From the NCBI GenBank assembly GCA_000004985.1, contig GG738886.1: a stretch of 64,000 nucleotides of DNA. One strand, given 5' to 3'. The notes beneath the pieces are model-generated. The model ran no database searches, was not told the DNA's origin, and saw only the letters and a list, made by a program, of their open reading frames with translations. Position numbers and translations under genes: made by a program. This document shows positions 23,798-49,766 of the stretch, piece by piece. Positions within the stretch are counted from its first letter, which is position 1. Each line of letters begins with the position of its first letter. The DNA comes from Naegleria gruberi. Lineage: Eukaryota.

Positions 23798-24994
23798 ATG
23801 AATAATCCGGATATTATTCATCAAGTATTAAACTTTTTAAACGATGGTTCCGAGGAGATGATCAAAGATTACATGTTGGTTTCTTCCGAGTGGATGAAGG
23901 CTGTTCGTAATTTAGATTTATTTATTGCAGTTTATCGGAAGAATATAAAGAAGGAACAAGTAGAATTAATGATGAAAAGTACTTGTTTGAAGAATTTGAC
24001 CAAGTTGACTATTAAATTTACTGATTTGGATGGGGTAAAGGCATTTTGTGATAATTTTGCCTTCGATAGATTGACTAGCTTGGCTGTGAACGATAGTAAA
24101 CTTGGAGTTGAAGGCGCCAAGTTGATTGCACAATGTCAAAAATTGAGTAATTTGAAAGAGTTGAATGTTAGTGTGTGTGATTTGCATTGTGAAGGTGCTC
24201 AAGTGATTGTTTCAAGTCCAGTGTTTAGCAAATTGACTAGTTTGGATCTGGGTTGGAATCAGATTAAAGATGAAGGCATAAAATCATTGGCAATGAGTGA
24301 ACACATGTCTAACTTGACTCAATTAGACCTCTATCTCAATCTATTTGGAGGAGATGGCTTATCAGCAATGGCTACTAGTCCATACCTGACTAATCTTACG
24401 GATCTGAAAATGGCAGAGCTATTTCTTGGTGAAGGAATTGATTCAATTTGTGATGGTAAATCCCTTTCTAATCTAACGAGATTGGATTTGACAGAAAATG
24501 ATTTATATGAAGGTGCCATTACTGCTTTGAATAAGAGCTTGACAAAGATTACTGATCTCAATTTAACTAAGAATAATATTGGAGATGAGGGAATTGAAAT
24601 ATTGGCCAACAGCAAGTTTGCATCCACTTTGAAAGTGCTCAATATTACTGACAATGTCCTCAACCCAGCATCTTTTAAAGCAATTTCAAATTCTCAATTC
24701 CTTTCCAATTTGGAAGTATTGAATGCCTCCTCGAATTTCAGAGTAAAGGATGAAGGAGCCAAACTCATTGCCAACAGTCCAACACTTTCAAATTTGACTG
24801 AACTCATTTTGGAGGATGACAGTATTGGAACTGAGGGAGCTTGCGCAATTGCCAATAGTCAGTATTTGACTAAACTGAAGAAATTGAATCTTTCATTTAA
24901 TAAGATTGATGAGGAAGGTGTGAAGGCAATTCAAAACATGAATATCCAAGCCAAAGTCGGTAACGACAAAGCTAAGGGTTGTCCACAGCAATAA
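23798..24994 (+). CDS. F-box-like / RNI-type leucine-rich-repeat protein
   Basis: 398 aa. N-terminal F-box-like segment (IIHQVLNFLNDGSEEMIKDYMLVSSEWMKAV), then ~12 ribonuclease-inhibitor-type LRRs (LSNLTQLDLYLN.., LTNLTDLKMAE.., ITDLNLTKNNIGDEGIEILA..). Confidence 0.8.
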   Translation: MNNPDIIHQVLNFLNDGSEEMIKDYMLVSSEWMKAVRNLDLFIAVYRKNIKKEQVELMMKSTCLKNLTKLTIKFTDLDGVKAFCDNFAFDRLTSLAVNDSKLGVEGAKLIAQCQKLSNLKELNVSVCDLHCEGAQVIVSSPVFSKLTSLDLGWNQIKDEGIKSLAMSEHMSNLTQLDLYLNLFGGDGLSAMATSPYLTNLTDLKMAELFLGEGIDSICDGKSLSNLTRLDLTENDLYEGAITALNKSLTKITDLNLTKNNIGDEGIEILANSKFASTLKVLNITDNVLNPASFKAISNSQFLSNLEVLNASSNFRVKDEGAKLIANSPTLSNLTELILEDDSIGTEGACAIANSQYLTKLKKLNLSFNKIDEEGVKAIQNMNIQAKVGNDKAKGCPQQ

Positions 24995-25390
24995 ATCGAT
25001 TTGTTGCTGAATCTACATTTTCATTCATCCGATTTTGCTCATGGTTGTGTGTTTACAGATCTGTTTTCCTTCCAATACCACAACTGGAAACAATCACCCT
25101 TCGTGGAAGGACCTTTTGTTGATTGAATTGATTTAGAAATTGTAAATTACTCACCAGATATGTTAATGAAATATCAGCATTGTATAACCATTGAAACAAC
25201 AAATGTTGCTTTCGAATAATTGTTTCCTTGATGATTGTATGTTGCATTCCTGACATTTTAAAGACGCATCTAAATTGTCAACCTCAAAACAACAACCGTT
25301 ACCTTTCGCAAGTGCAAAATCAGCTCCTTTCATGAGTTCTTTTAGAACTTTATTTTCACGAAATGACAGCTGTCTTTTATCAACAAAAAA

Positions 25391-26572
25391 ATGCACAAAC
25401 AGATATCTTTATTCTTGTTAGTTTTATTCTTGCTGGTTTCTTCAGCATCATTCAAACATACCCATTTCACAAAGGACATGATTGACTCTCTCAATCAAGA
25501 TCCATCTGTCAAATGGGAAGCTGCAAATTATGACCAATTTGCAGGTAAATCATTTGCTGAATTGAGAAAATTATTAGGTGGTAAGAGAGGTGAAGAAAGC
25601 TCGAGTGAAGAAGCAAGATATAATACCAGAGATGTTAAATCGACTGTTGCCATTCCTGATACTTTTGATTCTAGAACTAAATGGCCACAATGTATTCATG
25701 GTATTAGAAATCAAGGTGTAAGTAATATTCATCCATAGCATGTTGTTTAATATTGTAAAAAAAGCAATGTGGATCATGCTGGGCTTTCGCAAGTAAGTAT
25801 TAAGTTTTCCTCTGTTGTTGCTCATCTTTGACAACAATTATTACAACAAAATATGATGTGAATATTGACATGAATAACATGAAAATAATAGCTACTGGTG
25901 TTTTCTCTGATCGTTTGTGTATTACTACTAACAACGTTTCAAATGTTGTTATCAGTCCTGAAGTAAGTTAATGTAAGCTAACAATAACATAACATTCGTC
26001 CAGTTTCTTATTGAATGCGACAAGACCAGTTTTGCATGTCAAGGCGGTTATGGTTATTATTCATGGAAATTCTTCATGAATACTGGTATCCCATTAGAAT
26101 CCTGTGTTCCATACACTAAAGATTCCCTTGTTTATGGTAACACCACCAACGCTCAATGTAGATCAACTTGTACTGATGGTAGTCCACTTAAATTATACAA
26201 GGCTGCTAGTGCTTATTATATTTACTCTCCAATTACCAATTATCAAACTGAAATTATGACTAATGGACCAGTTGAAGCTGATTTTGATGTGTAAGTTTTC
26301 TAATTTTAGTAATGTGAAATTTTAATTTTTTTTAGATATTCTGATTTTTATTCATATAAATCTGGTATTTATCAAAAGACAGCAGGAAGTACCTATGTTG
26401 GTGGACATGCTGTTAAGGTTCTTGGATGGGCTTCTGATTCTAATGGAACTCCTTATTGGATTGCTCAAAATCAGGTAAGTTTCGAATAGAAATTAACAAT
26501 TAATAGAAATAATTTAAAACACAATAATAGTGGGGAACATCATGGGGTATGGGAGGCTATGTATGTTTTTAA
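25391..26572 (+). CDS. cathepsin B-like papain-family cysteine protease, >=6 exons
   Basis: Proposed exons: 25391..25717, 25765..25792, 25892..25962, 26004..26290, 26336..26474, 26531..26572 (stop, or spliced onward). Junctions rebuild NQG|QCGSCWAFA-TTGVFSDRLCITT (active-site Cys), GPVEADFDV|YSDFYSYKSGIY, GGHAVKVLGW (His), and IAQNQ|WGTSWGMGGY (Asn). Signal peptide is MHKQISLFLLVLFLLVSSASF. Donors are GTAAGT or GTGTAAGT. Confidence 0.8.
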
Positions 26573-26669
26573 TTTGATTTGAAAAATTAATTAACTTTTT
26601 CTAGTTGTAAGTAATTTGTAATTTACTTTTTTGTAAATTTATTATCAACCTTAACAGTTATATTTATAG

Positions 26670-27844
26670 AGGAAATTCTACTTTGAATTGTAAATTTGAT
26701 AATTACATGATTGCTGGAACTGTCTCACCACCAACATGTTATGGTAAAGCTCAAAGTGATTCTTCAGTTTGTAATGGACATGGTCAATGTGTTGGACCAG
26801 ATACTTGTTCATGCTCAAGTGGATGGGGTGGCACTTATTGTAATATTACCAGTTGTAATGGAATTGTTTTGACTGATTCATCAGTTTGTAGTGGTCATGG
26901 CCAATGTGTTTCTGCTGAAAATTGTGTTTGTAATAGGTAGGTTTTTTCACTTGTTGTGTGATTTTTTTAACACAATTGGTTGAAGTGGTTGGAGTGGAAC
27001 TTATTGTGCTGAAACTACCTGTAATGGTATTTCATCTGCCAATTCATCTGTCTGTAGTGGACATGGTACATGTACTACCAAGGATACTTGTACATGTAAG
27101 ACTGGTTATGGAGATCAATATTGTCAATCATTCATTTGTTATGGATTGACTGGTTCCAATGCTGCCGTTTGTTCTGGACATGGTACATGTTCTGCTTATA
27201 ATACTTGTAAATGTAATACTGGATACTCTGGTTCTCAATGTCAAAACTATACCTGTAATGCCATTGCCCAAAATAATGCCAATGTCTGTTCAGGACATGG
27301 TTCTTGTGTTGATTACAATACTTGTAAATGTTCAGGTGGATACACAGGTACTTATTGCTCACAAGTTGCTTGTAATGGAATTCTTCCAACAGATTCATCT
27401 GTTTGTAGTGGCCGTGGTAAATGTGTTGGTCCAAACAATTGCACATGTACCAACTCAACTCAGTATGGAGGTGAATTCTGTCAAGTTCCAAAATGTGGTG
27501 GAATTTTGGCAACAGATTCTTCAGTTTGTGGTGGAAAGACCAATTATGTTTGCTCTGGTGTAAATACTTGTACATGTAAGACTGGATATACTGGAGCTAA
27601 TTGTAACTCATTCTCATGTTTTGGAATTGATTCCAACTCAACAAGTGTCTGTGCAGGAAGCGGAAAGTGTGTTGCATTGGATACTTGTCAATGCACTGAT
27701 GGAACTTCAGGCAATTGTACTTCCTCAACTAGTACAGATTCCAGCACAAGACAATCACATGCCTCTAATCAATATGGCCAAACCATGTGGATCCAAATTG
27801 TATTGTGTACTGTCTTGTTATGGATTGGAGCTATTGTTTTTTAA
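26670..27844 (+). CDS. tenascin-type EGF-repeat (CxGHGxC) membrane-anchored region; probably downstream exons of the cathepsin B-like gene
   Basis: Open frame from ~26670 with no in-frame ATG and no signal peptide. It begins NCKFDNYMIAGTVSPP, which resembles the cathepsin B C-terminus HCGIESEVVAGIP. About 11 EGF-like repeats follow (CNGHGQCVGPDTCSCSSGWGGTYC...). A 49-nt intron at 26937..26985 (ag|GTAGGT..GAAG) restores ...CVCN-S-GWSGTYC. C-terminal hydrophobic tail IQIVLCTVLLWIGAIVF (TM or GPI signal). Stop at 27842..27844. Confidence 0.7.
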
Positions 27845-28211
27845 ATATTCAAAGATTGAGAATAAATTAGTTGTGTGAAATAAGCTTCCAGAACTTAATT
27901 ATGGTTCGATGGCAAGTAGTTTATAGAGTTCAACCTGTAATCCCAACCTTAAAAGCTCTAAGGAAATGTTGAATTTCCTTCATTGATAATTTTCTTTGCA
28001 TATTCCTCTCTCCTGTGTTCATTATCATGCATTTCGAAAGGGAGAGAGGATTAGCAAGTGCAAACTTTGGTCTATTCGATTTTACACAACAAGAAATATC
28101 CTATAGTTGTTCAACATGATTCCTCTGATTTATCCACCGATTGCACCATGATCTCAAAGAATAATTCATTCGCCCAATGAAGATGTTCCAAAGTCTTAAA
28201 TTATCATAATA

Positions 28212-30089
28212 TTAAAAATCATTACACAATTTCAATATTTCCTTATCATTTCTCAAATCAATGGATGCATATTTCAGTGCACTCTTATTTTGTTTGACTG
28301 CAAATGAAACTATTCCTCTATCACTTCTGAGTTTTAAACACATTTCACGTAACAGATTGCCATCTCTTTTCACAACTCGAATCACAAATACTCTATCTGA
28401 GACCTTTAATTTACCAGCACTGTAGAATGCATTAATAGCATCAGTTTTTAACGCTTCCATCAAAATCTCTCTATCTATTTGATGTTTTCTTGGAAAATTT
28501 GGCAAATAATTCCCAGATTGTTTGACTAGTTTCTGAAAGCAAAATAGTCTGTCATTAATCAATCTTTTAGATATCTGACTAAAATTCAACATGACGTTTC
28601 AGCAGCTTTGAGAACAATTTGTTCATCATCCCAAAACTCTGCTGTGCAAGAATTGATTGCATCTCCATCTTGTGTGACTGCAGCCAAAACTATTTCTCTA
28701 TCTGTTTGAAATTGTTCACCAACATAATACAATATCTCACCACATCTTGTTACAGCTTGTAATACAAATTCTCTGTCTTGTTTAAATTCATTTGGGATTG
28801 CATTCATTGCTTCGTACAGATTAAAACATCCTGAGGATATTTTAATTGATTCCAATAATACCTCTCTGTCGTGTGTGAATTGATCTGGAATATTCTCCAA
28901 AGCAAAACCAGTCTTTGCAAATGATTGGATGAATTCAATGTCATTTCTCAATCTATCAGAAATATATGTAATGGCCAAACCAGAAGATTTGAGTGCCAAC
29001 TCAGCAATTTCCTTGTCATCTCTCAATTCAGTTGATGCAAATTGGAAACAGGACCAATTTTTCATAACAAGCATTTTCACAAATTCCTTATCATTTTTCA
29101 ATTCATCAGATGCGTGTTGAAAAGCTTGTGGATTTTGTTGAATAGCTTCCATAACAATCTCTCTATCATTTCTCAATTCCTTACACGCATATTCTAGTGC
29201 TTTCACACCGTCCAAATTTGATATTGTGAGCAGAAACTCTCTATCATTCGTAAATGCCCTACTTGCACTGTTAATTCTGGCAAGAGATTTTGAAAATGCT
29301 TTAAAAATCACATCTCTATCATTTCTCAATAATTGGGATGATTGAAAATATGCATTTGGCTTTGATTCTAGAGCTAGTAAGACAATTTCCTTATTATTTT
29401 GCAATTCTTTGGACGCAAACTCTAGGGCATCACCATTTTCTTGTACAGCAGTTCTAACTATTTCAATATCATTTCTAAATGTTTCAGATACAAATTTAAG
29501 AATTGGTCCCCAAGTACTAACAGCTGTCATTACAATTTCCCTGTTTCTTTTCAATTCTTCAGATGCGTACGAAAGAAAATGACCCTTATGTTGCACAGAA
29601 GTTTTTACAATTTCAAAATCATTTCTCAATTCTTCTGAGGCACATCTGATGCTTCCATTTTCCTTGACAGCTGCCATGACAATTTCTCTATCATTTCTGA
29701 AAACATCATCCACATAATTGAGTGTCTCAAGACCACTATACTCTGTTGTAGTCAAAACAAACGATCTATCCTTCCACAATCCAAATTTTCTAGCCAAAAT
29801 ATCAAATTTATCACAAGGCAAATCGAATATTTTGTCATGAATAAAAGTTCGATCTCTAATCAATCAATATTGGAAAATTAATTGGTTGATTTTCATTGTT
29901 AAATTCTTCTCCATGATCAAAAAACTCCCAAACAGAATCATCACTTCTCCCGAAACAATATTCAAGTATTGGTTTTAAAATGGTGTCGTGTTTGTCATTG
30001 GGTGGAATGTCTGCAATTTTTGTGGAGAGTAATTGGGAAGAGAGGGACAAATCTAAAAAACACTGATGGTTATTCTTCATCATTGGCAT
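28212..30089 (-). CDS. DUF4116-repeat protein (RNDREIV..A..NG.AL.YAS repeats), gene model interrupted by two frame changes
   Basis: Three overlapping minus ORFs (29856..30089, 28586..29863, 28212..28592) all continue the same ~25-aa repeat pattern. The junction at ~29859..29866 is a tandem ATCA|ATCA (tgat|tgat on the coding strand); removing one copy restores ...NFPILIRDRTF. The junction at ~28586..28595 needs a -1 shift (...AAETS/MLNFSQISKRLINDR). Confidence 0.65.
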
Positions 30090-49685: not shown

Positions 49686-49766
49686 TGCAGAAGGTGGGAT
49701 TTGAACCCACGAAGCTTGCGCAGTAGAACTTGAGTCTACCCCCTTTGACCACTCGGGAACCCCTGC
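49686..49766 (-). tRNA. tRNA-Leu (anticodon CAA), class II with long variable arm
   Basis: Reverse complement reads GCAGGGG TT CCCGAGTGGTCAAAGGG G GTAGA CTCAAGT TCTAC TGCGCAAGCTTC GTGGG TTCAAAT CCCAC CTTCTGC A. Anticodon loop CU-CAA-GU. T-loop GTTCAAATC. The acceptor stem has two G-U pairs. Overall very similar to eukaryotic tRNA-Leu(CAA). No intron. Confidence 0.85.

Follow-up and report, generated by a model that had tools for sequence, protein, structure and literature searches.

Positions 25391-27844 (+) of the Naegleria gruberi DNA analysed here (64,000 nucleotides (nt) of contig GG738886.1, assembly GCA_000004985.1, hereafter the window) raise a question in two parts: do a cathepsin B-like protease domain and the epidermal growth factor (EGF)-like repeats lying behind it belong to one gene, and, if so, through which splice junction are they joined? 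The first part can be answered with high confidence, in that the interval is very probably one fused gene, NAEGRDRAFT_70754. For the second, the best overall explanation, and a likely one, is a single gene of nine exons, one of them only 2 nt long, encoding a membrane-anchored, EGF-stalked cathepsin B-like protease.

The window is AT-rich (GC content ~0.34), and seven of its intron-less open reading frames (ORFs) are identical to N. gruberi NEG-M proteins (e.g., EFC41378, EFC41306; UniProt D2VP64 to D2VP91) encoded on a scaffold of 358,576 bp. Six candidate splice products of the locus were submitted to exact-sequence look-up. The product containing the 2-nt exon, 673 amino acids (aa) long, is 100% identical over its full length to EFC41310.1 / XP_002674054.1 / UniProt D2VP73, and the five alternative products have no exact match in the protein collection. 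D2VP73 is uncharacterised and labelled only "predicted protein", and its annotation already implies the 2-nt exon. The fused gene model, and implicitly the 2-nt exon too, is already in GenBank and is not new. The gene is not mentioned under any accession in the literature searched (on Naegleria cathepsin B and EGF, Naegleria microexons, and EGF-fused cathepsin B-like proteases), where its architecture is also undescribed; the EGF matches in PMC11964265 were rejected, the text there meaning eGFP.

The resemblance of both parts to known domains is beyond chance (Pfam Peptidase_C1, E=2.8e-53; EGF_2, E=5.2e-26). A preliminary description of the locus, based on the sequence alone, had proposed one gene for the cathepsin B-like domain, the stalk and the anchor, and this is borne out both by the identity with D2VP73 and by two further contigs that carry an uninterrupted fusion ORF. 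Direct reading and three-frame translation also find the motifs QCGSCWAFA, GGHAV, NQ and WGTSWG where they had been placed.

At the boundary between the two parts, exon 6 (26531..26560, 30 nt) encodes WGTSWGMGGY and, if read through from 26531, meets an in-frame TAA at 26570-26572, as had been noted. The downstream frame, open from ~26611, lacks an ATG up to 26707 and has neither a start codon nor a signal peptide to itself, again in agreement with the preliminary description. It opens with the C-terminal cathepsin segment missing from the upstream part, reading YIYRGNSTLNCKFDNYMIAGTVSPP ahead of the EGF units (in translation, ...YIYRGNSTLNCKFDNYMIAGTVSPPTCYGK..., then cysteine-rich repeats). 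This segment begins upstream of NCKFDNYM, as YIYRG, encoded from 26658, belongs to it too.

Exon 6 ends in phase 0 at a GTATGT donor, and the plausible acceptors at 26657 and 26669 are each two bases short of restoring the frame. Between them and the donor, the dinucleotide TT at 26605-26606 is preceded by a polypyrimidine-TAG acceptor and followed by a consensus GTAAGT donor (TTTTTCTAG-TT-GTAAGT), dividing the 97-nt interval 26561-26657 into introns of 44 and 51 nt. The first, intron 6a (26561..26604; GTATGT..TTAAC..TTTTTCTAG), contains the in-frame TAA, and the second, intron 6b (26607..26657), runs GTAAGT..CAG. Together with T26658, the putative microexon makes up the TTT codon of the invariant Phe295. 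The resulting junction protein reads WGMGGY-F-YIYRGNSTLNC, in which GYFYIYRG is gapless and the Phe restored, and exon 8 (26658..26936) then carries the last protease strands ((F)YIYRGNSTLNCKFDNYMIAGTV, ending with aa 318 at 26727), the whole of EGF unit 1 and the greater part of unit 2. An acceptor and a donor at this frame-repairing 2-nt spacing would be expected in this interval with a chance of ~1e-3. The motif AGNNGTAAGT is expected just 1.31 times in 128 kb (both window strands), and 6 of the 22 GTAAGT sites of the window fall within this gene, on the + strand.

Every in-frame, stop-free pairing of GT/GC donors with AG acceptors was enumerated, allowing for no more than one internal exon (up to 40 nt), and the 35 resulting models were scored with a custom C1 hidden Markov model (HMM) made from 94 homologous domains. 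The model with the TT exon ranked first of the 35 (284.2 bits) and is the sole one with two consensus-like donors; the runner-up (278.7 bits) requires the poor donors GTTTTT and GTAATT. On Pfam Peptidase_C1, the TT model covers 218 of 220 positions (1-218) at 181.7 bits. Procathepsin B structures align gaplessly across its junction, ...GYFYIYRG...AGT. Other single-intron junctions, among them those using a GC donor at 26556, or GTTTTT at 26565 joined to 26611 (with a 17-aa insertion), were rejected for poor donors, for lower HMM scores or for the absence of a collection match. Overall, the splice signals, the frame and the homology argue with good probability for TT as a genuine 2-nt exon.

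The alternative that survives best is a recent frameshift pseudogene, or an assembly error of 1-2 nt, in which the true intron would be 97 nt long (26561-26657) and the 2-nt exon an artefact of the gene predictor. It has some merit: such an intron would be comparable with the gene's own intron 2 (99 nt), 2-nt exons are extremely rare, and the GenBank entry is merely a "predicted protein". Transcript evidence was not found either, as exact look-ups of the spliced product, of the cluster member P0136 and of ORFs of 232, 85 and 77 aa led to nothing beyond the genome scaffold and a single metagenome contig of genomic DNA. Nevertheless, this alternative is unlikely. An independent allele is available in a 1,019-nt contig from an ENA metagenome (L006), reached via a 72-aa fragment, which spans positions 25600-26659 of the window and is 98.6% identical to it over 25877-26659 and 93% over 25600-25798. 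All six substitutions in 677 exon nt are synonymous third-position changes, which would have a probability of ~1e-4 under neutrality, and the insertions and deletions (+8, about -51, -1 and +3 nt) all lie within inferred introns. The coding sequence is therefore under purifying selection. The TAG-TT-GTAAGT stretch is unchanged in L006, as is the whole of 26579-26659, so that random sequencing error is unlikely and the junction, judging from this identity, is not a random assembly error. Intron 2 shrinks to 48 nt in L006, where all introns measure 41-55 nt; the junction interval of ~100 nt is therefore better explained by two introns than by one. The polypyrimidine-TAG and GTAAGT signals stand exactly 2 nt apart, the sole spacing that repairs the frame, and downstream the coding frame is intact over more than 1.1 kb, including a further intron in the correct phase.

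Less probable still is the junction first proposed for the same fused gene, a single 125-nt intron from GTATGG at 26547, inside exon 6, to the AG at 26670-26671 (26547 to 26672), giving a 663-aa product with ...WGTSWG-NSTLNC.... What had been said of its GTATGG, its AG and the kept frame stands, and the intron is indeed canonical (GT..AG), in frame and stop-free, and would make the microexon unnecessary. As the actual junction, it is very unlikely. It deletes MGGYFYIYRG, thereby removing a core beta-strand and the invariant F295, I297 and G300, and the domain match is weaker (Pfam 197/220 at 167.3 bits; custom HMM 263.1 vs 284.2 bits). The donor hexamer differs from all other donors of the gene, and an intron of 125 nt would exceed every other one. 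In L006, the donor GT at 26547 is GC (GCATGG) through a T>C change at 26548 that leaves the amino acid unaltered (GGT>GGC) if this position is coding. Finally, the 663-aa product has no match in the protein collection, whereas the product with the microexon does.

Least probable of all are two separate units, a secreted 297-aa cathepsin B-like protein ending at TAA 26570-26572 and a distinct EGF/anchor gene: the read-through of exon 6 does meet that stop and the truncated product retains 173.1 bits on Peptidase_C1 (267.1 bits with the custom HMM), but the final ~20 positions of the fold are missing from it (200/220), and it is these that the EGF frame encodes, in frame, at its beginning; that frame has neither an early ATG nor a signal peptide, yet encodes disulfide-rich extracellular modules; the gap between the parts is only ~100 nt, with no AATAAA after 26572; both the 297-aa and the EGF-only products are unmatched in the protein collection; and the two proteins P0058 and P0024, described below, show the same fusion within one ORF.

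Certain points weigh against the single gene with its 2-nt exon. The exon is supported by arguments from homology, splice signals and frame only, and the GenBank model is itself computational, so that it does not constitute independent experimental support. L006 is 100% identical over 26579-26659, introns included, and hence does not discriminate in favour of the microexon. No two-domain ortholog was found in other Naegleria, or anywhere above 50% identity. Upstream, the propeptide family PF08127 was not reported by the Pfam scan at E<=0.01, and the propeptide assignment is therefore due to the procathepsin B alignment alone.

With the microexon included, the gene comprises nine exons and eight short GT..AG introns. 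Exon 1 (25391..25717) starts with the ATG and encodes a hydrophobic putative signal peptide (residues 1-20; 25391-25450), a cathepsin-B-type propeptide (residues 21-87), which aligns with procathepsin B proregions, and the start of the mature domain, including the codon of the oxyanion-hole Gln108 (25712-25714). Intron 1 (25718..25764; 47 nt, GTAAGT..AAG; 55 nt in L006) is followed by exon 2 (25765..25792, 28 nt), which encodes QCGSCWAFA with the catalytic Cys114 at 25777-25779. Intron 2 (25793..25891), exon 3 (25892..25962, 71 nt) and intron 3 (25963..26003, 41 nt) lead to exon 4 (26004..26290, 287 nt), the expected site of the cathepsin B occluding loop, which is absent. After intron 4 (26291..26335, 45 nt), exon 5 (26336..26474, 139 nt) carries the catalytic His262 (26406-26408, within GGHAV) and Asn283 (26469-26471), and intron 5 (26475..26530, 56 nt) precedes exon 6. 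Downstream of the junction, intron 8 (26937..26985; 49 nt, GTAGGT..AAG) lies inside EGF unit 2, and exon 9 (26986..27844) encodes the remaining EGF units 2-8 (to 27718), the spacer (27719-27784), the tail (27785-27841) and the stop codon TAA (27842-27844). An AATAAA hexamer at 27861..27866 (+), 17 nt past the stop codon, is a possible polyadenylation signal.

The donors of the gene are GTAAGT (five), GTATGT and GTAGGT. Besides 6a and 6b, five of the six introns measure 41-56 nt, intron 2 being the longer one. Intron 2 is strongly polymorphic in length (99 nt in the reference, 48 nt in L006) for strains so closely related, and L006 also differs in the lengths of intron 1 (+8 nt) and intron 6a (+3 nt, i.e., 47 nt).

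The protease domain (residues 88-318) belongs to papain family C1A (Pfam PF00112, match 1-218/220). Its residues Q108, C114, H262 and N283 occupy the same alignment positions as the human cathepsin B catalytic residues. In an alignment (A1) of the protein with human cathepsin B and three other homologues, C114, H262, N283, Phe295, I297 and G300 are invariant. The 25 best PDB matches by sequence are all cathepsin B or procathepsin B (best E=2.9e-52), with alignments that start at residue 22-30, inside the proregion; procathepsin B structures are aligned from residue 26 onwards. In the AlphaFold2 (AF2) model, the confidence score pLDDT exceeds 90 over most of the protease domain and reaches 93-96 for residues 271-300, including 95 for the strand 294-298, which holds the Phe restored by the microexon. 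The best PDB matches of this model by Foldseek are the procathepsin B zymogens 5fpw, 4i04 and 1pbh (target TM-score 0.87). The domain is complete, with an intact active site, and is apparently active.

The occluding loop with its His-His pair is absent: in alignment A1, the human loop aligns to a gap and DSLVYGNTTNAQC. The protein is therefore cathepsin B-like rather than cathepsin B proper, and it would be expected to act as an endopeptidase devoid of dipeptidyl-carboxypeptidase activity. This feature is common, as the C.HH motif of the loop is missing in 94 of 98 related domains (a set that includes three fusion-protein domains and human CTSB).

The stalk (residues 322-632) comprises eight six-cysteine EGF units with a period of 39 aa, all fitting C-x(4-14)-C-x(3-8)-C-x(3-8)-C-x-C-x(5-13)-C. 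The preliminary description had counted ~11 repeats, a figure that does not hold; GHG occurs in only five of the eight units. Pfam assigns the stalk to EGF_2 (E=5.2e-26) and EGF_Teneurin (E=4.6e-18), which makes it a tenascin/teneurin-type array. Tandem Repeats Finder detected no DNA-level tandem array in the EGF region, because the units have diverged at the nucleotide level. A Ser/Thr-rich spacer (residues 633-654) and a hydrophobic tail (residues 655-673) follow. This tail, which ends the protein directly before the stop codon ending at 27844, agrees with the C-terminal anchor proposed earlier. It is 19 aa long, has no cytoplasmic residues, and is preceded, 8-10 aa upstream, by small residues (S645-H-A647 or A647-S-N). 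From these features, glycosylphosphatidylinositol (GPI) anchoring would be marginally preferred to transmembrane anchoring. The AF2 model has lower and variable confidence along the EGF array and is helical at residues 653-672, and a tail-less type I transmembrane helix would be equally compatible with the tail.

The product contains 11 N-x-S/T sequons. As a possible mechanism, the zymogen would enter the endoplasmic reticulum, where it would be disulfide-bonded and glycosylated, and would be fixed to the membrane via a GPI anchor or a tail-less transmembrane helix. Activation would occur through removal of the propeptide. The enzyme could then operate as an endopeptidase on a semi-rigid stalk, some tens of nm off the amoeba surface or the phagosome membrane, and might digest prey or matrix proteins on contact, unlike a freely secreted enzyme.

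The same architecture recurs elsewhere. The 120 best matches of a word-indexed search include two proteins, from unrelated environmental eukaryotes, in which Peptidase_C1 occurs together with EGF modules of the same families and with a hydrophobic C-terminus. One continuous ORF encodes P0058 (455 aa) on an ENA metagenome contig (L001, GC 0.26), and P0024 (846 aa) is likewise encoded by one continuous ORF, on a Logan assembly contig (L002, GC 0.32). In both, Peptidase_C1 leads directly into tenascin-type EGF units, as in the N. gruberi protein, and the junction of P0058, GGYFWIRKGTNECGIEDYMVCPNVPPSCFGK, is a close parallel to the N. gruberi protease-EGF junction. Nevertheless, they are only 31-36% identical to the N. 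gruberi protein, and P0024 differs from it in having a true transmembrane helix and a cytoplasmic tail. The three C1 domains do not cluster in a crude distance analysis, where each lies closer to ordinary cathepsin Bs, so that the fusion may have had more than one origin.

With two further examples, the architecture is rare as well as undescribed. An exhaustive search of 1.84 billion representatives yielded no close full-length ortholog, its results being dominated by giant EGF proteins, and a Pfam scan of ten of its candidates revealed no new C1+EGF fusion, only P0024 again. A metagenome scan with the junction peptide found no ortholog; the contigs it returned were rejected as such, two coding for GC-rich EGF proteins (L003, L004) and one for a plain cathepsin B (L005). 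A junction-centred homology search gave 36 candidates and nothing useful.

The annotated protein itself was missed by homology search, because its 90% cluster (P0136 / P0137) is represented by the 72-aa fragment P0137, a prokaryote-style ORF call on exon 4 of a metagenome contig. The same masking may affect other eukaryotic genes.

In heterolobosean and environmental proteins, the same EGF array is found behind other heads, namely NHL, Kelch, jacalin, kinase and a weakly metallopeptidase-like domain (P0008), which suggests that it could serve as a generic surface stalk. The head of P0008 (eukprot gene4934-8531_t, 1,029 aa) is zinc-metallopeptidase-like, with HELGHGFGLYH (Reprolysin_4, 23.9 bits; Peptidase_M43, 22.1 bits); behind it come a long series of these EGF units and, at the C-terminus, a hydrophobic tail. 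P0008 represents a second kind of protease on the stalk-and-anchor design. Cathepsin B-like domains also occur in other protist or metatranscriptome fusions (e.g., P0001, P0025, P0041, P0054), which include a tandem double protease (P0001, 600 aa) and combinations with an N-terminal ML/MD-2 domain (PF02221) or with saposin domains (PF03489/PF05184). The loop-less cathepsin B domain thus appears to be a frequent partner in domain shuffling. The full picture, in which the gene needs a constitutive 2-nt exon and its product is a GPI-anchored, EGF-stalked, loop-less cathepsin B acting by contact at the surface or in phagosomes, one of several heads on a heterolobosean EGF display stalk, is slightly favoured over its negation.

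Around the gene, the upstream neighbour is an ORF for an LRR_6 protein (398 aa, 23798-24994, +). Unlike most large ORFs of the window, it has no exact match in the protein collection; presumably the deposited model contains an intron or starts elsewhere. Downstream lies a DUF4116-repeat protein (28212-29863, -), split into two ORFs in different frames, 28586-29863 (10 repeats) and 28212-28592 (3 repeats), with a 7-nt overlap; the split could reflect an intron, a frameshift or two genes. A 77-aa ORF on the minus strand (25163-25396, GTG start) overlaps the protease start codon, lacks any Pfam match and is unlikely to be a gene. The sole RNA gene detected in the window by ARAGORN and at Rfam gathering thresholds is a tRNA-Leu(CAA) at 49686-49766 (-).

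For protease biology, the gene predicts a papain-fold endopeptidase that would be part of the cell surface by virtue of its C-terminal EGF stalk and anchor, and the literature searched describes no cathepsin B-like enzyme of this stalk-and-anchor design. In N. fowleri, a pathogenic relative, a role in virulence is discussed for cathepsin Bs. With a surface-tethered form, the non-pathogenic model species would offer a tractable route to contact-dependent proteolysis during feeding. The practical impact is modest, given that the gene model is already deposited, that no close ortholog was found, and that the function is only inferred.

For splicing and annotation, the locus provides a concrete and cheaply testable 2-nt exon candidate. 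If true, this exon would be among the shortest spliceosomal exons known, in an organism with introns of ~50 nt, and, to our knowledge, the first ultra-short exon reported outside plants. Its splicing would proceed most simply intron by intron and would presumably be defined across introns. The TT model predicts the mRNA junction ...GGGAGGCTAT-TT-TTATATTTATAGAGG..., with the diagnostic k-mer GGTATGGGAGGCTATTTTTATATTTATAGAGGAAATTC, and the splice proposed earlier predicts TCATGGG-GAAATTCT, with the k-mer ACATCATGGGGAAATTCTACTTTG. Intron retention would be revealed by GGAGGCTATGTATGTTTTTAATTTG, and at the protein level the fused product predicts the peptide VLGWASDSNGTPYWIAQNQWGTSWGMGGYFYIYR.

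Among known systems, the closest to the candidate exon are found in plants, where exons shorter than a codon have been validated (PMC4674806, PMC8831610). Like the candidate TT exon, the 1-nt exons of plant APC11 and VPS55 are constitutive sub-codon exons between two canonical introns, with a strong GTRAGT donor; they keep a conserved protein in frame and are easily missed or mis-modelled (PMC4674806, PMC8831610). They were validated by reverse transcription polymerase chain reaction and RNA sequencing, whereas the N. gruberi exon is deduced from genome sequence. The latter also differs by its 2-nt length, its heterolobosean host, its introns of ~45-55 nt, and an annotation that already implies the microexon.

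For the protease, cathepsin B (human CTSB and the procathepsin B of Trypanosoma congolense, T. brucei and Schistosoma) is the best match in both sequence and fold. The N. gruberi protein shares with it the short-type proregion, the Gln/Cys/His/Asn site and the motifs GGHA, NxWG and GYFxIxRG, but lacks the occluding loop and is longer by ~355 residues at the C-terminus (EGF x8, spacer, anchor). The Giardia cathepsin B group comprises loop-less cathepsin B-like endopeptidases (PMC10454693). These enzymes resemble the N. gruberi protein in being cathepsin B-like by sequence without an occluding loop (PMC10454693). In contrast to it, they are soluble or secreted, single-domain enzymes, and neither an EGF stalk nor a C-terminal anchor has been described for any of them.

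Two further comparisons come from general knowledge. TINAG and TINAGL1 also combine a cathepsin B-like domain with EGF-like cysteine-rich modules in an extracellular protein. Their modules are N-terminal, however, their catalytic Cys is lost, and they are secreted matrix components, whereas the N. gruberi protein keeps Cys114, has a C-terminal EGF array and carries an anchor. Meprins, ADAMs and GPI-anchored membrane-type matrix metalloproteinases follow the same design, in which a cysteine-rich or EGF spacer separates the zymogen protease head from a membrane anchor and proteolysis is thereby restricted to the surface. They belong to another catalytic class, with another fold and origin, and the likeness to the N. 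gruberi protein is one of analogy only.

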